A stretch of 64,000 nt of DNA from assembly GCA_017441845.1 (NCBI GenBank), contig JAFRVB010000004.1, forward strand, positions 3,684 through 67,683. The letters run 5' to 3'. The notes under the pieces were generated by a model that was not told the origin of the DNA, did no database searches, and was given only the letters and a program-made list of their open reading frames with translations. Position numbers and translations under genes: made by a program. This DNA is from Bacilli bacterium. GTDB lineage: Bacteria; Bacillota_I; Bacilli_A; RF39; UBA660. This document shows, in pieces, positions 1-7,912 of the stretch. The first letter of the stretch is position 1, and the number at the start of each line of letters is the position of its first letter.

Positions 1-381
1 CATAGAAAATATTTAGAAAATATAGATCTATATGAATATGAATTAAAGAAAGAGGCTAATGAAAAAAATAAAAAAGAATATATATTTAATTGCTTATCAG
101 ATATAAATATATTTCCTCAAATACAAGAATACTATATAATGTTAAATTCATTAGGATATGATTATAAGATTGAATATCAAGATAAAACAAGTAAAGAATA
201 TCCTGTTTTCAGGAAAATAATATCCTTCTATGAAAAAGAAAAGAACTATACTGAAGCGATTCGATTATGCGATATTGCAATCAAGTGTGGTATAAAAAAG
301 TACCACGGTAAAACTAGTATTATTGAAAAAAAGAAAAAATTAGAAGAACAAAGTAAGAAGAATAAAAATGAAAAAAAGTAA
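1..381 (+). CDS. 3' end of a CDS that begins upstream of the window; hypothetical protein with a Lys/Glu-rich tail
   Basis: Frame 1 is open from nt 1 to the TAA at 379-381; the track shows only the internal Met at 139. No motif recognised. Confidence 0.5.
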   Translation, partial: HRKYLENIDLYEYELKKEANEKNKKEYIFNCLSDINIFPQIQEYYIMLNSLGYDYKIEYQDKTSKEYPVFRKIISFYEKEKNYTEAIRLCDIAIKCGIKKYHGKTSIIEKKKKLEEQSKKNKNEKK

Positions 382-417
382 TTCGTTTACACTAAACAAA
401 AGAAAAAATTATTTTTA

Positions 418-426
418 TGATATAAT
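418..426 (+). promoter_or_regulatory. Extended -10 promoter element (TGaTATAAT) upstream of the MazG-like gene
   Basis: The sequence tgatataat lies 18 nt upstream of the ATG at 444. No good -35 is visible, which is typical of extended -10 promoters. Confidence 0.45.
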
Positions 427-443
427 TGAATTAGGTGGTAAGG

Positions 444-758
444 ATGAAAGAATTAACTAAAAAAGTAGTTGAGTTTACTCGTGAAAGAGATTGGGATCAG
501 TTCCATTCTCCAGAGAACTTAGCAAAAAGTATTTCAATTGAAGCAGGAGAATTATTGGAATGTTTTCAATGGAATAATGAATATGCTTTGGATGAAGTAA
601 AGGAAGAACTAGCTGATGTTATAAACTATTGTATATTAATGGCTGATAAATTAGGTGTTGACCCAGAAGAAATAGTTCTAGAAAAAATGGATAAAACCGC
701 AAAAAAATATCCGGTGGAGAAAGCAAAAGGAAAAAGTTTAAAGTATGACAAATTATAA
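444..758 (+). CDS. MazG-like (all-alpha, DCTPP1/RS21-C6-type) nucleotide pyrophosphohydrolase
   Basis: About 105 aa. RDWDQFHSPENLAKSISIEAGELLECFQW ... EELADVINYCILMADKLGVD ... KYPVEK matches the small MazG-like family, including its EAxELLE / EELAD metal-binding helices. The track starts at GTG 435; ATG 444 lies behind GGTGG. Confidence 0.75.
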   Translation: MKELTKKVVEFTRERDWDQFHSPENLAKSISIEAGELLECFQWNNEYALDEVKEELADVINYCILMADKLGVDPEEIVLEKMDKTAKKYPVEKAKGKSLKYDKL

Positions 759-1242
759 TATTGACAAAGCTAAAAATGTTTTTAATCAAGCAAATGGTTT
801 TCTAAAATTCATTGATGAAAGTGAATTTATTGCACTTAATCCTATGTATCAAAATCCTTTTTATATTAATTGTTTGCTTTGCTGTGAATTATATTTAAAG
901 GCTCTATTAATATTAGATGGTAAAGATGAAAAATATTGTAAAAAAATGGGGCATAAACTATTAGATTTATTTAGTGGTTTAAAAAAAGAAGATCAAAATC
1001 AAATAAAAACAATATTACAAATAGTAATTGATGAAGATATATTTCAGTATTTAGATAGAATAAATGATGATTTTATAGAAATGAGATATGTTTATGTTAA
1101 TGGGGAAAATATTGATGCTAAAGAATTTAATAATAATTATGCCAAAACAATAGGTTTAATGTATAGATTACAAAACTATACTAGTCTTAAATTATATGGT
1201 AGAGATACCTATGAGGAAGTGAAAAATAATGCTGGTATATGA
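745..1242 (+). CDS. HEPN-like all-helical protein
   Basis: CCELYLKALLILDG...GHKLLDLF and a later EMRY segment resemble classical HEPN helices. The assignment is by pattern only, and no clean Rx4-6H motif was seen. The ATG overlaps the upstream stop by 14 nt. Confidence 0.45.
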   Translation: MTNYNIDKAKNVFNQANGFLKFIDESEFIALNPMYQNPFYINCLLCCELYLKALLILDGKDEKYCKKMGHKLLDLFSGLKKEDQNQIKTILQIVIDEDIFQYLDRINDDFIEMRYVYVNGENIDAKEFNNNYAKTIGLMYRLQNYTSLKLYGRDTYEEVKNNAGI

Positions 1243-3103
1243 AGGTATAAAATCTGGTTTTATTGAAGATGTAGACTTAGGAATAATTGCAGATAAGATT
1301 AGAAATAAATACATTGAAGTCATAAAAAAAAGACCAAGTGCACCTGAATTCAATTCATGGAAAAATTCTATGCAATATATGAGGGGTGTACTAAGTGATA
1401 ATGACATACCAAATAATATTGGTATAGCTATCGAATATAATATTCCGCCAACTGGTTGTAGAATAGATTTTATGATGTCTGGATATAAACAATCTAAATC
1501 AAATGTTGTAATTATTGAGTTAAAACAATGGGATAAAGCAACTGAAGTTGGAGAGATGGATGGGATATATAAAGTTAATACATTCACTGGCGGAGGAATG
1601 AGAGACGTTAATCATCCATCATATCAAGCCATGACATATGCCAACTTAATTAGAGATTACAATGAATCAGTTCAATTAGAAGATATTAACGTAGTACCAT
1701 GTGCGTACCTTCATAATTATTATTTTGATAATGATGATACACTATTATCAAATAATTATAAAGAATATGTAGAAGCAGCTCCATTATTTGGACATAATGA
1801 TGTATTAAAACTAAGAGATTTTATTAAAAGATACATAGAAGATGGGGACGAAGGAAATATTCTCTATGAAATAGATCATGGAAGAATAAGACCATCTAAG
1901 ATGTTACAAGATTCGTTATCACAAATGTTAAAAGGTAATAAAGAATTCTACATGATAGATTCTCAAAAAATTGTATATGAATATGCATTAAGATATGCAA
2001 TAGATACAGTTGCTAGTAATTCTAAAAACGTAATGATAGTTAGAGGCGGACCAGGTACAGGGAAATCAGTCTTAGCCATCAATTTACTCGTAGAATTAAA
2101 CAATAGAAATATGACTTGTTTCTATGTTACTAAGAATGCAGCACCTAGAACTGTTTATGCAGCTAAATTAAGAGGAGAATTTACAGCAACTCACATAAAT
2201 CATCTATTTCAAGGATCAGGAGGATTCTATGAAGAAGAAACAAACAAATTAGATTGTTTAGTAGTAGATGAAGCACATAGATTAAATGAAAAATCAGGAT
2301 TATTTCAAAATAGAGGAGAAAACCAAATTAAGGAAATAATAAATGCTGCTAAATTTTCAATATTTTTTATAGATGAAAACCAAAAAGTAACATTAAAAGA
2401 TATTGGCAGCGAAGATTTAATAAGAAAATTTGCTCAAGAACAAGGAGCAGGTATTTATACATATGAATTAGATAGTCAATTTAGATGTAATGGATCAGAT
2501 GGATATGTTGCTTGGCTAGATAATACTTTAGAAATAAGAGATACAGCAAACTTCGATATAGAGGGATTTGATTATGACTTTAAAGTATTTGATGATCCAA
2601 ATGAAATGAGAAGAGAAATAGAGGAAAAGAACAAGATTAATAATAAATCAAGAATAGTTGCTGGATATTGTTGGGAATGGCCTACAGGTAATACCAGAAA
2701 TGATTCTAATTATCATGAAATCAAAATACCTGAAAAGAAGTTTGAAATTAGCTGGAATCTTGAGTCTGGTGAAGCGTTTGCAATAGGTGAGAATTCTATT
2801 AATGAAGCAGGATGTATTCACACAGTTCAGGGTTTAGAGTTTGACTATGTTGGAGTAATAATTGGTGATGATATGAGATATGAAGATGGACATATTGTTA
2901 CTGATTATACAAAAAGGGCACGAAGTGATAACTCACTAAAGGGAATCAATAGAATAACAAATGAACAAGGAGAAGAAGTGGCTAATAAAATAGCTGATAC
3001 TATAATAAAGAACACATATAGAACATTAATGACTAGAGGAATGAAAGGTTGTTATGTTTATTGCACAGATAAAGAATTACAGGAGTATTTAAAGAATAGT
3101 TAG
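1229..3103 (+). CDS. PD-(D/E)xK nuclease-like N-terminal domain fused to a DUF2075 / Schlafen-group-3-like P-loop helicase
   Basis: N-terminus: GCRIDFMMSG ... VVIIELKQW (D ... ExK). Walker A: RGGPGTGKSVLA. Walker B: CLVVDEAHRL. C-terminus: IHTVQGLEFDYVGVIIG and TLMTRGMKG, typical of the DUF2075 / SF1-like C-terminal domain. The start overlaps the upstream gene by 14 nt and follows GAGGAAGTGA. Confidence 0.75.
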   Translation: MLVYEGIKSGFIEDVDLGIIADKIRNKYIEVIKKRPSAPEFNSWKNSMQYMRGVLSDNDIPNNIGIAIEYNIPPTGCRIDFMMSGYKQSKSNVVIIELKQWDKATEVGEMDGIYKVNTFTGGGMRDVNHPSYQAMTYANLIRDYNESVQLEDINVVPCAYLHNYYFDNDDTLLSNNYKEYVEAAPLFGHNDVLKLRDFIKRYIEDGDEGNILYEIDHGRIRPSKMLQDSLSQMLKGNKEFYMIDSQKIVYEYALRYAIDTVASNSKNVMIVRGGPGTGKSVLAINLLVELNNRNMTCFYVTKNAAPRTVYAAKLRGEFTATHINHLFQGSGGFYEEETNKLDCLVVDEAHRLNEKSGLFQNRGENQIKEIINAAKFSIFFIDENQKVTLKDIGSEDLIRKFAQEQGAGIYTYELDSQFRCNGSDGYVAWLDNTLEIRDTANFDIEGFDYDFKVFDDPNEMRREIEEKNKINNKSRIVAGYCWEWPTGNTRNDSNYHEIKIPEKKFEISWNLESGEAFAIGENSINEAGCIHTVQGLEFDYVGVIIGDDMRYEDGHIVTDYTKRARSDNSLKGINRITNEQGEEVANKIADTIIKNTYRTLMTRGMKGCYVYCTDKELQEYLKNS

Positions 3104-3145
3104 ATACTCTTTTTTCATGGAGATCTATTAAAAAATAATTAAAGC

Positions 3146-3154
3146 TGGTATACT
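3146..3154 (+). promoter_or_regulatory. Extended -10 promoter element (TGgTATACT) upstream of the Nudix gene
   Basis: tggtatact lies in the 70-nt gap after the DUF2075 gene. The RBS AGGTGA is at 3161-3166 and the ATG at 3173. Confidence 0.45.
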
Positions 3155-3172
3155 GTAAATAGGTGATATATT

Positions 3173-3559
3173 ATGATTACAGTAGTAGCTGCTTTAATAA
3201 AAAAAGATAATAAATATTTAATAGCAAGACGTTCTACCGGAGATCCTAATGTATATGGTAAATGGGAGTTTCCAGGAGGGAAAGTAAAAGAAAGTGAATC
3301 AGAAGAACACGCTATTGAAAGAGAAATAAAAGAAGAATTTGAAATGGATATTAAAGCTAAAAAATTTTTGATTAATAGTATCTGTGAGTATCCAACTAAA
3401 ATAATAGATTTGAAATTATATGAATGTGAATATATTTCTGGAGAATTCAATCTTCATGATCATTCAGAATACCAGTTTTTAAATAAAGAGGATATATTAA
3501 AATTAGATTTATGTCCTGCAGATATTCCGTTAGCAAAATATATAAAGGAGAACTTATAA
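3173..3559 (+). CDS. Nudix hydrolase, MutT/NudG-like (deoxy)nucleoside triphosphate pyrophosphohydrolase
   Basis: The Nudix box GGKVKESESEEHAIEREIKEEFEM is near-canonical (GX5EX7REUXEEXGU). The N-terminus VVAALIKKDNKYLIARR..G.WEFPGG is typical of MutT-type enzymes. Confidence 0.85.
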   Translation: MITVVAALIKKDNKYLIARRSTGDPNVYGKWEFPGGKVKESESEEHAIEREIKEEFEMDIKAKKFLINSICEYPTKIIDLKLYECEYISGEFNLHDHSEYQFLNKEDILKLDLCPADIPLAKYIKENL

Positions 3560-3560
3560 T

Positions 3561-6302
3561 ATGAAAAACAAATTTTTATCTAATAAAAACAGCGAGTTTT
3601 TAAATAAAATAAAGGATAATCTTAAAGCATGTAATTCGTTTTATTTTACTGTTAGTTTCATTAAAAAGGCTGGGTTGATATTATTAGAAAGAGAAATAGA
3701 AGAAGCGTTAGAAAGAGGCGCTGTCGGTAAAATAATAACATCAACATATCAAAATTTTACTGATATAAGCTCATTAGAACAATTCTATAATTGGCAAAAA
3801 GAGTTTGATAATTTTGAATGTCACCTAGATTATGAATGTTTTGGTGAAAGTGGATATCATTCTAAGGGATATATGTTTGAATATAATGATTCATTTGAAT
3901 TTGTAGTAGGGTCATCAAATATAACAAGATTTGCACTAACAAAAAACATAGAATGGAATGTTTCTTTAATAGCTAAAGATGATTTTGATTCTTACAAAGA
4001 AGGTTTAAAAGAATTTAATATTTTATGGAATAAAACATTAGAATTAGATTATAAATTAATCGAAAAATATAAACTACAATTAGATTATGCTATTGAAAAA
4101 TGGGATATGGATTATATAAATGCAACTGATACAACTATTAACCCTAATTCTATGCAAAGAAAAGCATTGAGGGAATTAAGAAGATATAGAGATACTGGAG
4201 TGAAGAAAGCATTAATAATTAGTGCAACAGGATCTGGAAAAACATACTTGGCCGCTTTTGATGCTCGTAACTTTGGGGCAAAAAGATTGTTATATATTGT
4301 TCACAGAGAATCAATTCTAAAAGATGCTAGAGATTCGTTTATAAAAATATTTGGAGCTGAAAGAACATATGGCTTTTTCACTGGTAATGAATCAAATCAA
4401 GAGTGTGATTTTATATTTGCAACCAGTAATATGTTAGGGAGACACTTAGATGAATTTGATAGAAATGAATTTGAGTATATTATTTATGATGAAGTGCATC
4501 ACGTGGTAGCTGATACTGGTAAAAAGATTTTTGAATATTTTAAACCAGAATTTATGCTAGGCTTAACGGCTACTCCTGAAAGAATGGATAATCAAAATGT
4601 ATTTGAATTTTTTGACCAAAATGTACCATTTGAATTAAGACTTAGAGACGCGATTAATAATGATTTAGTAGTACCATTTCATTATTATGGTATTAGAGAT
4701 GAATTGGTTGATTATAGTTCTAAAGATAGAATGGTAATAGCGAAAGCAATTGCAGCACAAGATAATATAGAGTTTATTAAAGAACAAATAGAGAAACACA
4801 AAAAAGTAGGAGAAAAATTAAAATGTATTGCTTTCTGTACTAACATACAACATTGTAAGTTAATGGCTGAAGAACTTTATGAAGAAGGGTATAATACAAT
4901 ATCTTTAACAGGTATAAACGATACTGGTGTTAGAATAAAAGCATTTAAAGATTTGCAAGATGATAATAATCCTTTAGAAATAATTTGTACTGTAGATATA
5001 TTAAATGAAGGAGTAGATATACCACAAATAAATATGGTATTATTCCTACGACCAACCGAATCACAAACAGTATTTATCCAACAATTAGGACGCGGTTTAA
5101 GAAAGTACCCAGGAAAAGAATATGTAACAGTACTAGATTTTATTGGAAATAATTATGATAGAGCAGTTCAAATTGCAATGGCGTTAGGAACTTTAAGTAA
5201 TACAACATATATAGAAAAAGCATATTTAAAAGACATGATTAGTACTAATTTTAAGTCTTTAGATATACCTAATGTGTTGATAGATATTGACGATTTATCA
5301 AAAGAAGAAATAATCGAATATATTGATAAAACGAATTTTAATTCTAAAGCATTTTTAGAAAAAGATTATACTAATTTTAAGAATTATATTAATAATGGAT
5401 CATATCCAAGTCACATGGATTTCTTAAATTCAGATGTCGCCCCCGATCTAATTAGAATTATAAAAACTTCATTTAGTGGATCTAAGAATATGTCATATTA
5501 TAATTTTTTAAAAAAGATCAATGAAGAAACAATTCCAATATTCAATGAGATTGAAATAAAAATAATAAACATAGTTGAAGATTTATTACCTATTGCTAGA
5601 TTAGATGAATACCTAATTATAGAACAAGCAATAAAAGAAGGTATTATAGATTTAAAAAGATTAGAAGGACGTAATGCGCACATTACAGAGAAAACCCTTG
5701 AAAATGCATATAATAATCTAGTTAAATTGGGAGTTTTAGAAAACAATAAATTTGATTTGCTAAGAATGAATAATGATGAATTGAAAGATTATTTAATAGA
5801 TACATTGAATTATGGAATAATTAGATATAATAGAGAATTTGGTGAATATGAAGGATTGTTTAAACTATACCGAAATTACTATAAAGAACAAGCATCAAGA
5901 ATTATGCTAAAAAATGGTTTGTTGCAAAAAGGAACTTACTATGAAGATGATGTGGCATACATCTTCGCTGGAATAAAAAAAGATGAAGATGGAAAATTAA
6001 ATTATAAAGATAAATTTTTGAATAGCAAAGTATTCCAATGGGAAAGTATTGCTGATGTATCTGAAAATGAAAAAAGGAATCTAAGAAACGCTAAGAAAGT
6101 TCATTTGTTTATTAGAAAAATGGAATCAGAAGATACAGTTACTTTACCTTATACTTATTTCGGATTAGGGAGCTTTACCAACGAAAGACCATGGTATACA
6201 GAAGAAGATGGAGTAAAACACCCTACATTATTATTTGATATTATCTTGGACAATGAAGTGCCTAAAGAATATTTTGTTGATTTTGAAATATCAAATAATT
6301 AA
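3561..6302 (+). CDS. PLD-nuclease / SF2 helicase / DUF3427 fusion protein with SauUSI-like type IV (modification-dependent) restriction endonuclease architecture
   Basis: N-terminal HKD motif: YHSKGYMFE...VVGSSNIT. Helicase motifs: SATGSGKT (I), IYDEVHH (II), LTATPER (III), QQLGRGLR (VI). The C-terminal region, with FQWES... and KVHLFIRK...PYTYFGLG, is typical of DUF3427. The start is 2 nt after the Nudix stop. Confidence 0.75.
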   Translation: MKNKFLSNKNSEFLNKIKDNLKACNSFYFTVSFIKKAGLILLEREIEEALERGAVGKIITSTYQNFTDISSLEQFYNWQKEFDNFECHLDYECFGESGYHSKGYMFEYNDSFEFVVGSSNITRFALTKNIEWNVSLIAKDDFDSYKEGLKEFNILWNKTLELDYKLIEKYKLQLDYAIEKWDMDYINATDTTINPNSMQRKALRELRRYRDTGVKKALIISATGSGKTYLAAFDARNFGAKRLLYIVHRESILKDARDSFIKIFGAERTYGFFTGNESNQECDFIFATSNMLGRHLDEFDRNEFEYIIYDEVHHVVADTGKKIFEYFKPEFMLGLTATPERMDNQNVFEFFDQNVPFELRLRDAINNDLVVPFHYYGIRDELVDYSSKDRMVIAKAIAAQDNIEFIKEQIEKHKKVGEKLKCIAFCTNIQHCKLMAEELYEEGYNTISLTGINDTGVRIKAFKDLQDDNNPLEIICTVDILNEGVDIPQINMVLFLRPTESQTVFIQQLGRGLRKYPGKEYVTVLDFIGNNYDRAVQIAMALGTLSNTTYIEKAYLKDMISTNFKSLDIPNVLIDIDDLSKEEIIEYIDKTNFNSKAFLEKDYTNFKNYINNGSYPSHMDFLNSDVAPDLIRIIKTSFSGSKNMSYYNFLKKINEETIPIFNEIEIKIINIVEDLLPIARLDEYLIIEQAIKEGIIDLKRLEGRNAHITEKTLENAYNNLVKLGVLENNKFDLLRMNNDELKDYLIDTLNYGIIRYNREFGEYEGLFKLYRNYYKEQASRIMLKNGLLQKGTYYEDDVAYIFAGIKKDEDGKLNYKDKFLNSKVFQWESIADVSENEKRNLRNAKKVHLFIRKMESEDTVTLPYTYFGLGSFTNERPWYTEEDGVKHPTLLFDIILDNEVPKEYFVDFEISNN

Positions 6303-6392
6303 ATTGTTAACAAAAATTGCGAAAGTTCCAATTAAAATTGGTAGAGAATATATTTCAAATAGTATATGATTTATTTGAAAGAAGGGATAATT

Positions 6393-6983
6393 ATGGAAAT
6401 TGGAAAAAAGATAATGGAATTGAGAAAGAAAAATGGTTTTTCTCAAGAAGAGTTAGCTGATAAAGTAGGAGTAACTAGACAAACTATTTCTAAATGGGAA
6501 TTAGGTGAAACTTCACCTGATTTAAAACAAGCTAAAGAGTTATCTAAAATATTTAAAGTAAGTTTAGATGAATTAGTTGATAATGATATAGAAAATATAT
6601 TAATAGAGAAAACATCTAATACTGAAAAATTAGCTGGATTAATATTAAAATTACTTAGATTCTTAATAGTATTTATTATTGTATTACCTATATTAGTAAT
6701 TATATTAAATATTGTAGTCAAAAATTATAGAGAGAATAATTCTGGTAGATTAGTTAATACTTCTATACAATGTACATTACATGATAAAGAATATTCTTAT
6801 GAATTTGAGTATTTTGAAGAAACTGGTCAAATTAAAGCAGCTGGTGGAGATGAATATCTAGCTAATATTACTAATGTTGATAATGAAAGTGATGCTTATG
6901 TAGCATTAGATAAGATAACTGCTTATGTAGAGAATAATAATGGTACCTGTAAAAGAAGTGAACCTAAAGAAGTAAAAGATTAA
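6393..6983 (+). CDS. XRE-family HTH transcriptional regulator with a transmembrane segment and an extracytoplasmic C-terminal domain
   Basis: LRKKNGFSQEELADKVGVTRQTISKWELGETSP is a Cro/C1-type HTH, followed by the hydrophobic helix LLRFLIVFIIVLPILVIILNIVV. The start is chosen at the MEIGKK Met behind GAAGGGA; the track starts at 6366. Confidence 0.8.
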   Translation: MEIGKKIMELRKKNGFSQEELADKVGVTRQTISKWELGETSPDLKQAKELSKIFKVSLDELVDNDIENILIEKTSNTEKLAGLILKLLRFLIVFIIVLPILVIILNIVVKNYRENNSGRLVNTSIQCTLHDKEYSYEFEYFEETGQIKAAGGDEYLANITNVDNESDAYVALDKITAYVENNNGTCKRSEPKEVKD

Positions 6984-6987
6984 TAAT

Positions 6988-7017
6988 AAAAGGCTTAGTT
7001 AAATTAAGTCTTTTTTT
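6988..7017 (+). terminator. Rho-independent terminator
   Basis: aaaggctta / taagtcttt stem (one G-T pair) with a 7-nt loop, followed by a T7 run. Confidence 0.6.
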
Positions 7018-7075
7018 ATTATAAATGATTGTTTTTATTAAAATATGATGTATAATTAATGGGCGAGGGATTAAT

Positions 7076-7912
7076 ATGATAGAGTGTTTATTAGAAGCAT
7101 TAATTGATACATTAAAAGTTATACCTTTTTTATTTTTAACATTTATTGTATTAGAGTATATTGAACATAAATTTACTGATAAGAACAAAAAGATGTTATC
7201 TAAAAATAAAAAGTATGGTCCAGCTATTGGAGGAGTATTAGGCGCAATACCACAATGTGGATTTGGTACAGTCGCAGCTAATTTATTCTCTGCTAGAGTA
7301 ATTACTATGGGTACATTAATAGCTGTTTTCTTATCAACAAGTGATGAAATGTTACCTATAATGATAAGTGAACAAGCTAATATACTATTAATATTAAAAA
7401 TAATAGGTTTTAAATTAATAGTTGGTATTATTATTGGTTATATTATTGATCTAATCTATAGAAAGAATCAAGAAAAAGCAGAAATACATGAATTCTGTGA
7501 ACATGAACATTGTGATTGTGAACATGATGGAATACTTCTTTCTAGTATTAAACATACTATTAAGATTGGATTATTTATTCTTTTAGCTAATATAATTATT
7601 GGATTATTAATCTTCTATATAGGAGAAGATAAAATATCTAGTTTATTACTACATCATAATATTTTAACTTATCTATTATCTAGTTTAGTAGGATTAATAC
7701 CTAACTGTGCTGGTAGTGTTATTATTACTGAGTTATTCTTATCTAATATGATAAGTGTAGGTACACTATTAGCTGGTTTATTAACTGGTAGTGGTATCGG
7801 TATATTAGTATTATTTAGAGTAAATAAAAATTTAAAAGAAAACTTAACTATACTTGGAATACTATACTTTATAGGTGTAGTTATTGGTATATTAGTTGAT
7901 TTCATAATATAA
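7076..7912 (+). CDS. Polytopic membrane protein, ArsP_2-like predicted metal exporter
   Basis: GPAIGGVLGAIPQCGFGTVAANLFSARVITMGTLIAVFLSTSDEMLPIM resembles the predicted 10-TM metal exporter family. The His/Cys-rich loop HEFCEHEHCDCEHDG supports metal binding. Confidence 0.55.
   Translation: MIECLLEALIDTLKVIPFLFLTFIVLEYIEHKFTDKNKKMLSKNKKYGPAIGGVLGAIPQCGFGTVAANLFSARVITMGTLIAVFLSTSDEMLPIMISEQANILLILKIIGFKLIVGIIIGYIIDLIYRKNQEKAEIHEFCEHEHCDCEHDGILLSSIKHTIKIGLFILLANIIIGLLIFYIGEDKISSLLLHHNILTYLLSSLVGLIPNCAGSVIITELFLSNMISVGTLLAGLLTGSGIGILVLFRVNKNLKENLTILGILYFIGVVIGILVDFII

Follow-up and report, generated by a model that had tools for sequence, protein, structure and literature searches.

The subject of this analysis is a pair of genes in a 64,000-nucleotide stretch of contig JAFRVB010000004.1 from a Bacilli bacterium, referred to below as the window, in which a Nudix hydrolase of 128 amino acids (aa) is encoded immediately upstream of a 913-aa protein of the SauUSI family. 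The pair belongs to a known and widespread two-gene module that was first seen in Staphylococcus aureus, and the pairing of the two genes across genomes is far beyond chance. The large protein is very probably a modified-cytosine-dependent, ATP-dependent endonuclease, and the most likely substrates of the Nudix protein, as predicted from its relatives, are 5-methyl- and 5-hydroxymethyl-(d)CTP, which would be converted to the monophosphate and pyrophosphate. We consider there to be an even chance that the Nudix protein is a safeguard, removing 5-substituted dCTP so that the SauUSI-type nuclease spares the genome of its host.

Both open reading frames were found, with one nucleotide (nt) between them, as in the tightly spaced 128-aa and 913-aa proteins of a preliminary description made from the sequence alone. 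The genes and their ribosome-binding sites are as follows.

3161-3166, plus strand: Shine-Dalgarno sequence AGGTGA of the Nudix gene, by reading of the sequence, 6 nt ahead of the ATG at 3173
3173-3559, plus strand: Nudix gene, 128 aa, open reading frame present, stop TAA at 3557-3559
3546-3550, plus strand: Shine-Dalgarno sequence AGGAG of the large gene, within the 3' end of the Nudix gene, 10 nt ahead of the ATG at 3561
3561-6302, plus strand: SauUSI-family gene, 913 aa, open reading frame present, start ATG at 3561

The junction has the form TAA-T-ATG (3557-3563), a single spacer base separating the Nudix stop from the ATG of the large gene, and since AGGAG still belongs to the Nudix coding sequence, translational coupling of the two is plausible. 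The S. aureus nudix-sauUSI locus (SAUSA300_2432/SAUSA300_2431; Sae2385/Sae2386) has the same gene order and an identical junction form, a 130-aa Nudix protein preceding sauUSI, and primer IM224 is consistent with this Nudix-upstream operon form (PMC3312211). The copy of the S. aureus locus used here is GenBank OR845003.1, labelled 'Staphylococcus phage SA 1306 Kay' (UNVERIFIED_ORG), which also holds a phosphoglucomutase-like gene; at least its nudix-sauUSI part looks like host DNA under a phage label.

The preliminary description had taken the Nudix partner to be absent from the described SauUSI system. The literature says otherwise. Xu et al. (2011) reported a conserved MutT/Nudix gene, SAUSA300_2432, linked to sauUSI, stated that its function "remains to be examined" and put the number of SauUSI-like genes with such a linkage at 60 or more (PMC3141236). 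Monk et al. (2012) deleted the Nudix gene in S. aureus Newman and found SauUSI restriction intact, "data not shown" (PMC3312211). The Nudix protein also figures in its own right as a defence candidate, PADLOC PDC-S07, the model of which matched the window protein with E 9.4e-42, residues 1-126 lying on model positions 6-130 of 135. A structure of the S. aureus partner exists as well, since the protein in PDB 5X1X (titled "mutator mutT protein") shares ~97% identity with the Nudix protein of S. aureus; no paper on 5X1X was found in a literature search.

Linkage was surveyed with a profile of 45 SauUSI-family proteins, taking one genome per species. The family is large, with 1804 cluster representatives at E <1e-30. 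The survey gave 80 loci, which span Bacillota, Bacteroidota, Campylobacterota, Fusobacteriota, spirochaetes, Vibrio, Methanobrevibacter, Methanococcoides and a Bathyarchaeote, and the Nudix gene was placed in them as follows.

Directly upstream on the same strand: 25 loci of 80
Directly downstream on the same strand: 19 loci of 80
Directly downstream and convergent: 16 loci of 80
0.5-2.2 kb away: 2 loci of 80
No Nudix gene, full flanks: 12 loci of 80
Flanks too short to judge: 6 loci of 80, leaving 74 informative loci

A Nudix protein of ~130 aa and of the same clade was thus directly adjacent in 60 of the 74 informative loci (81%), so that the adjacency, which the preliminary description had proposed to survey among DUF3427/PLD helicase homologues, is conserved. 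The closest relatives of the window protein (loci L007-L021 and L042) show all three adjacent arrangements, indicating that the adjacency has survived repeated rearrangement. In two of the 150 best family representatives the Nudix domain is fused to the N-terminus of the nuclease, giving proteins of 1050-1062 aa (P0260 and P0377) with the domain order Nudix, PLD, helicase, DUF3427. The distance matrices of the Nudix and nuclease proteins are correlated (Mantel r 0.33, with 0 of 2000 permutations as high), a value to which shared species phylogeny contributes. The number of adjacent clade members expected by chance in the whole set is, by estimate and not by computation, well below one, because clade members are rare, no more than a handful in the thousands of genes of any one genome.

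The 913-aa protein aligned over residues 5-872 with the structure of SauUSI (7CLG_A, 953 aa; E 1.6e-114) and matched the PADLOC model mREase_IV for type IV methyl-directed restriction (E 1.2e-118). The PLD HKD motif, the SF2 motifs, the DUF3427 region and the overall SauUSI architecture, all read earlier from the sequence, were recovered by the domain scans and the 7CLG alignment.

3573-4040, plus strand: PLD-family nuclease domain, N-terminal (PLDc_2, 25.8 bits against a gathering score of 27)
3858-3953, plus strand: HKD core, H100-E131, from the alignment to SauUSI
4128-5153, plus strand: SF2 helicase-like ATPase/translocase (ResIII, E 2.6e-35; Helicase_C, E 2.3e-12)
5154-5744, plus strand: helical coupler region, by homology to SauUSI 618-805, with limits taken from PMC7913695
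5745-6284, plus strand: DUF3427 region, the C-terminal part of which is, by homology, a target-recognition domain of SRA fold

The catalytic motifs are intact. Residues H100, K102, N120 and E131 align with H119, K121, N139 and E150 of SauUSI, which were found by mutagenesis to be required for cleavage (Xu et al. 2011, PMC3141236), and all four are invariant in 45 homologues (alignment A1). Likewise invariant in the 45 homologues are G224, K227 and T228 of the Walker A motif (GSGKT), D310, E311 and H313 of the DExH motif (DEVH), and Q507 and R514 of motif VI (QQLGRGLR). The DUF3427 region went unreported when the full-length 913-aa protein was run through hmmscan at E <=0.01, a negative result which, taken alone, would have misled; a scan of the C-terminal fragment gave 67.6-72.4 bits (cut-off 27.7) over residues ~729-908, and the domain is also in the precomputed Pfam list. 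In SauUSI this C-terminal part has an SRA fold and flips out 5-methylcytosine (Tumuluri et al. 2021, PMC7913695), and three residues of the modelled 5-methylcytosine (5mC) pocket, F841, D858 and W868, are retained in the window protein as F802, D817 and W827. The window and S. aureus nucleases share the PLD/SF2/coupler/SRA architecture and are collinear over nearly their full length, and the two Nudix proteins belong to the same clade, yet identity is only ~36-37% in both proteins. The hosts differ too, that of the window being a gut anaerobe with ~25% G+C and with Finegoldia and uncultured Bacilli as relatives.

The Nudix protein matched Pfam NUDIX and NUDIX_4, and its best NCBIfam model was NudG (PRK10546; pyrimidine (d)NTP diphosphatase) at 92.3 bits, in agreement with its earlier assignment to the MutT/NudG type. 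The MutT equivalog models were missed (TIGR00586, 61.7 against 97.9 bits; PRK10776, 56.5 against 148 bits). Sequence matches in the PDB were 5X1X, 2RRK and 3GWY, that to E. coli MutT being weak (E 1.6e-7). The Nudix box is placed as follows.

3278-3346, plus strand: Nudix box, G36-M58, GKVKESESEEHAIEREIKEEFEM, with the pattern G36-x5-E42-x7-R50-E51-I-K-E54-E55

In 55 SauUSI-adjacent Nudix homologues E42, R50, E51, E54 and E55 never vary, and a consensus glycine of the box is E57 in the window protein and K in 5X1X. A clade profile was built from these 55 proteins. The clade's own members scored 142-182 bits against it, 5X1X scored 170 bits and the Bacteroides fragilis protein Q5LBB1 (3GWY) scored 156 bits, within the clade's own range, with E. 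coli NudG at 114 bits and MutT-like proteins at ~92-105 bits. In a neighbour-joining tree 3GWY was nested among SauUSI-adjacent Bacteroidota sequences. The clade therefore contains a characterised enzyme. An AlphaFold2 model of the window protein, made from an alignment of database proteins (alignment A4; pLDDT 92.6), had 3GWY as its best fold match, followed by complexes of Mycobacterium smegmatis MutT2 with CMP, dCTP and 5mdCTP, and NudG (2RRK) was also among the top matches.

As a pyrophosphohydrolase, Q5LBB1 works close to the diffusion limit on 5-methyl-(d)CTP and 5-hydroxymethyl-dCTP. Its kcat/Km is 6.7e6 M-1 s-1 on 5-Me-CTP, 4.8e6 M-1 s-1 on 5-Me-dCTP, 4.4e6 M-1 s-1 on 5-hydroxymethyl-dCTP and 8.5e4 M-1 s-1 on 5-OH-dCTP, and canonical NTPs are poorly hydrolysed (Nguyen et al. 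2016, PMC5158307). NudG favours 5-methyl-dCTP, and it is because these two characterised relatives share a preference that the substrates given above are assigned to the window protein. Q5LBB1 and the window protein are ~35% identical and share the clade-invariant E32, the Nudix-box glutamates, Y73-P74 and D117; the activity of the former is measured, that of the latter predicted. E32 and D117 correspond to E33 and D118 of E. coli NudG (Orf135; 2RRK), which we take to matter for substrate recognition, whereas R72 of NudG is not conserved, being C71 in the window protein. We know of no link of NudG or MutT2 to restriction genes.

The clade was then followed from the Nudix side. The contigs of seven relatives of 3GWY were inspected, and on two of them the Nudix gene abuts a PLD-helicase-DUF3427 gene. 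On a third (L094:4001-6402) it overlaps a DUF2075 helicase gene by 4 nt, the partner matching PADLOC PDC-S41 with E 1e-240. On a fourth, Phascolarctobacterium-like contig (L099:4001-6406) it is followed by an HNH_2 endonuclease (PADLOC HNH PDLC04132), a HpaII-type endonuclease and a convergent Vsr gene, which is another 5-methylcytosine-related setting. The other three stand alone and are discussed below. A profile scan of viral and proviral contigs gave a further 33 clade-level loci, forming 15 clusters at 80% identity, of which six lie by SauUSI-like genes, five by McrA-like HNH genes, one by an HsdR-like gene and three by other genes.

The McrA-like partner (~274 aa) has an HNH domain that matches E. 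coli McrA (6GHC, E 2.9e-17), ScoMcrA and TagI, with 5ZMM and 6GHS as further PDB matches, and PADLOC mREase_IV, and an N-terminal domain with a weak SRA match. Nudix and McrA-like HNH genes overlap by 3-6 nt in viral contigs (L102, L107-L129, L156, L162) and in a Priestia plasmid (L182:3501-4708), the pairs on Priestia megaterium plasmids overlapping by 4 nt. Fusions were found here too, a 487-aa HNH-Nudix protein on the Paenibacillus polymyxa plasmid pSb31l (WP_235330035.1; L183:2421-3884) and a similar 490-aa protein in L131:2927-4399; in both, an unassigned N-terminal region of ~300 aa precedes the HNH and Nudix domains. The McrA/TagI-type enzymes resemble the window system in joining a nuclease that reads 5mC or 5-hydroxymethylcytosine (5hmC) to a modified-dCTP hydrolase of the same Nudix clade, and differ from it in that the nuclease is unrelated, of HNH type and ATP-independent. 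Judged by homology, the clade is attached, through both adjacency and fusion, to two unrelated nuclease families that recognise 5-modified cytosine, and this common feature of the partners agrees with the measured substrate range of Q5LBB1. No paper was found in the searchable literature that describes the wider pattern of Nudix proteins with 5mC nucleases, including the McrA-like pairing, and the pairing as a second type IV partner family is apparently undescribed.

These results suggest a mechanism in which, by homology with SauUSI, the C-terminal SRA-fold domain would flip out and read a 5-modified cytosine, recognition would switch on the SF2 ATPase and so start translocation along the DNA, and the dimeric PLD nuclease would cut both strands of the modified foreign DNA. 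In SauUSI itself target recognition activates the ATPase and leads to translocation, and the dimer is held by the nuclease domains (PMC7913695). The Nudix protein would hydrolyse 5-methyl- and 5-hydroxymethyl-(d)CTP and would thereby keep 5-substituted dCTP out of the replication pool, leaving the host chromosome without the mark that its own nuclease attacks. By our own reasoning, such nucleotides may come from the breakdown of restricted methylated DNA, from the turnover of m5C-containing rRNA and tRNA, or from salvage; RNA turnover is named because 5-Me-CTP is the best substrate of Q5LBB1. Depletion of modified precursors made by a phage could be an added benefit. The preliminary description had offered both roles, the averting of self-restriction and the starving of phage, and the predicted activity on which both depend is backed by the Q5LBB1 biochemistry (PMC5158307) and by the McrA-like pairing.

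A type IV enzyme has no immunity of the methyltransferase type, for which reason the Nudix protein would be its safeguard. No methyltransferase domain was found among the neighbouring genes, the analysis being confined to the window and its flanks, and a crude regular-expression search of the window open reading frames of at least 150 aa gave no match to m5C/N6 methyltransferase motifs. The hazard of self-attack is real because SauUSI cleaves single-site and hemimethylated DNA (PMC7913695) and because its recognition pattern SCNGS is not avoided in the window. The sites are over-represented, 171 being present against 91 expected from dinucleotide shuffles, an excess that probably comes from codon usage (GCTGG, GCTGC, CCAGG); the window enzyme's own specificity may differ.

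Several observations weigh against the safeguard role. In the nuclease, the SauUSI pocket residues M829, Y831 and I842 are replaced by K790, T792 and A803, with Y793 and Y794 adjoining T792. As SauUSI Tyr-831, which contacts the methyl group, has no strictly aligned counterpart, the modified base read by the window protein is a prediction, and the modification and sequence context that it reads may differ from those read in S. aureus. In the Nudix protein, the NudG score is below the equivalog cut-off of 156 bits, which places it in a related clade and not as an equivalog of E. coli NudG. Together with a 71%-identical relative (L007) it is divergent, having 28-42% identity to most of the clade, and in the neighbour-joining tree it branches beside NudG. 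The substrates of both the window and S. aureus Nudix proteins are predictions. Nor is the linkage universal in either direction. No Nudix gene lies inside 4 kb in 12 of the 74 informative SauUSI-like loci, and no substitute pyrophosphatase was found beside the eight of these 12 that were scanned (10 immediate-neighbour open reading frames), where the neighbours are unrelated (MatE, YgjP-like, PGI, DUF2237, histidine kinase, OST-HTH). Three of the seven 3GWY relatives stand alone (two of Bacteroides fragilis type, one from Parabacteroides). Two of these stand-alone proteins are 87-98% identical to Q5LBB1 and have no SauUSI-like neighbour on their contigs, so that the clade is not exclusive to restriction loci. 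That 5-methyl-dCTP in bacteria may reach levels that matter is an assumption. Finally, the S. aureus nudix deletion is viable and its restriction unaffected, the reported readout being restriction, with no test for self-damage reported (PMC3312211). The deletion bears neither on a safeguard nor on an action on phage, since no evident supply of 5-methyl-dCTP exists for S. aureus in broth culture.

The main rival, which is compatible with a safeguard, is that the Nudix protein is a second arm of defence, hydrolysing modified dCTP made by a phage and so starving the replication of a hypermodified genome while the nuclease cuts the incoming DNA. The 5-hydroxymethyl-dCTP of T-even-like phages and the 5-methyl-dCTP of XP12-like phages are the targets envisaged. 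The window locus sits in a defence-type island, PADLOC lists the Nudix protein alone as defence candidate PDC-S07 and the protein is reported alone in defence islands of Streptococcus thermophilus (PMC11514479). Phage DNA containing 5hmC is, moreover, restricted by both of the partner nuclease families (PMC12707154). 3GWY is as good on 5-hydroxymethyl-dCTP, which has no known cellular source, as on 5-methyl-dCTP, although this equal activity could reflect a tolerant pocket, and the Km of ~3-10 uM and kcat of 14-45 s-1 of Q5LBB1 suit the scavenging of traces at least equally well (PMC5158307). Against starvation of phage also stand the close Q5LBB1 relatives of Bacteroides and Parabacteroides, which are alone in non-defence contexts, and any antiphage effect of the Nudix protein is a prediction. 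Defences that deplete nucleotides, such as dCTP deaminase and dGTPase, are similar in principle to this second arm, but they deplete canonical dNTPs and act alone, whereas modified nucleotides are the predicted targets in the window and the gene has a nuclease as its partner. Taken together we judge a second arm to be unlikely, though a serious contender.

It is improbable that the Nudix protein regulates the nuclease or forms part of it as a subunit, sensing or consuming its cofactor (ATP or dATP) or clearing pyrophosphate. The fusions to two nuclease families indicate that proximity is tolerated or useful and translational coupling is possible, but 16 of the 60 adjacent pairs are convergent and hence not co-transcribed, and its closest relatives of known activity act specifically on cytosine nucleotides. 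The products of helicase-type ATPases are ADP and phosphate, and Nudix enzymes do not act as inorganic pyrophosphatases, which counts against the breakdown of pyrophosphate from ATP or dATP hydrolysis that was proposed by Xu et al. in 2011 (PMC3141236). Purified SauUSI is active alone in vitro (PMC3141236, PMC7913695) and the intact restriction after deletion of the gene in S. aureus argues against an essential subunit (PMC3312211). An ordinary antimutator, that is a MutT-like 8-oxo-dGTPase standing beside the nuclease by accident, is very improbable indeed. Some sources do call the family "8-oxo-dGTP diphosphatase" or "mutator MutT", but the MutT equivalog score was missed and E. coli MutT is a weak match compared with proteins of NudG type; an accidental neighbour would also have to account for adjacency in 81% of informative loci, across phyla and in three arrangements, as well as for the fusions. 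Q5LBB1 is specific for 5-substituted (d)CTP, and the best substrates reported for it do not include 8-oxo-dGTP (PMC5158307).

A second pyrophosphatase is encoded directly upstream of the pair, in a module that sets the window apart from the S. aureus locus.

435-758, plus strand: MazG-like, DCTPP1-like pyrophosphatase (best PDB matches dCTP pyrophosphatase 1, 2A3Q and 6SQW, E 5.5e-18)
745-1242, plus strand: HEPN protein, from Pfam
1229-3103, plus strand: DUF2075/SLFN-g3 helicase with an N-terminal nuclease-like region, from Pfam

The three genes (435-3103) overlap by 14 nt each. DCTPP1 acts in the metabolism of 5-methyl-dCTP (PMC4491611). The mammalian protein (RS21-C6), a homologue of the window MazG-like protein, sanitises 5-modified dCTP including 5-methyl-dCTP; it differs from the Nudix protein in its all-alpha MazG fold and its eukaryotic housekeeping and epigenetic context, the proposed function being the same. 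A survey of 80 metagenome loci encoding relatives of the window DUF2075 protein, nine of them uninformative, showed MazG linkage in 57 of 71 informative loci. The MazG-like gene was directly adjacent to DUF2075 in 40 loci (27 upstream, 13 downstream) and within 2 kb with intervening open reading frames, as in the window, in 17; it was lacking in 14. The HEPN gene inserted between MazG and DUF2075 was absent from all other loci of the survey, and a literature search found no paper mentioning DUF2075 together with MazG.

The two modules also meet elsewhere: in Solobacterium (L018) and Niallia (L029) the MazG-DUF2075 and SauUSI/Nudix pairs abut. A DUF2075 protein can apparently be partnered by either Nudix or MazG, as is suggested by the Nudix-DUF2075 pairs of L094 and of L221, the latter with the gene order Nudix-DUF2075-MazG. 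Thus two unrelated pyrophosphatase folds, both with characterised members that prefer 5-modified dCTP, are each tied to nuclease-helicase genes, which supports the hydrolysis of modified dCTP as the selected activity. A general rule may tentatively be put forward, although we lean somewhat against it, that nucleases which read modified cytosine (of SauUSI and McrA types) and DUF2075 nucleases carry a safeguard hydrolase for modified dCTP, a NudG-type Nudix and a DCTPP1-type MazG protein being interchangeable in this role. As part of the same rule, and with the same reserve, such a hydrolase would do for type IV enzymes what the methyltransferase does in classical restriction-modification, with both versions present in the window.

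Taken by itself the window pair is unremarkable, an addition to a large family, and the broader pattern, in which modified-dCTP pyrophosphatases of two folds accompany modification-reading and DUF2075 nucleases, is the most interesting by-product of the analysis. In staphylococci and many gut bacteria it is chiefly type IV enzymes like SauUSI that stand in the way of genetic manipulation and horizontal gene transfer, and their safety for the host has so far been taken for granted, the host being assumed simply to lack the mark. If the safeguard role is correct, a 15-year-old loose end, the Nudix neighbour "to be examined" since 2011, would be explained, and a mechanism would be at hand for PADLOC PDC-S07 and probably for the MazG-DUF2075 pairs too. 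Bacteria would then police 5-methyl-dCTP as mammals do with DCTPP1, and 5-methyl-deoxycytidine fed to nudix mutants should turn the restriction enzyme on its host.

A promoter of its own had been assigned to the pair from a motif ahead of the Nudix gene.

3146-3154, plus strand: TGGTATACT, extended -10-like motif, present in the sequence and ending 6 nt before AGGTGA

The motif is there as described. However, motifs of this class number 30 in the window against 34.7 expected, a general promoter and terminator scan gave no more sites than in shuffled sequence, and L007 and L018, which are the closest relatives to share the gene order, do not conserve the motif. It was therefore rejected, though not disproved, as the sign of a separate transcription unit. 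The gap between the DUF2075 and Nudix genes is 69 nt, and no terminator-like site was found on the plus strand in 1-7200, which includes this gap; the pair may be transcribed by readthrough from the upstream genes. The sequencing runs that hold the sequence are of gut-metagenome DNA only, with no RNA runs among them.

In the sister contig L002 the large gene is split (L002:7714-10613; 617 + 295 aa). A pseudogene was considered and rejected in favour of a scaffolding artefact, the split being caused by a 179-nt foreign insert of higher G+C with NNNNNNNNNN, 10 consecutive N, at its end. G+C is 23-31% throughout, with no sharp compositional boundary, an Rfam scan of the window gave no match, and among named relatives the closest, with 82-88% identity, come from uncultured Bacilli and Finegoldia magna. 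Two contigs with identical genes (L001:1-1490 and L003:1-1490) reach back past the start of the window, and there, ~7-10 kb ahead of the MazG gene, they encode a tyrosine integrase and a Mob_Pre relaxase; next come a DUF4379 zinc-ribbon protein, two acetyltransferases and a TPR protein. The defence genes may be carried on an integrative mobilisable element. Downstream of the nuclease, after a gap of 63 nt, a 205-aa protein with an N-terminal HTH_3 domain and a hydrophobic segment is encoded at 6366-6983 on the plus strand; at the N-terminus it is similar to PADLOC RmrA and to control proteins, and the contigs with identical genes (L001-L006) have it in the same place.

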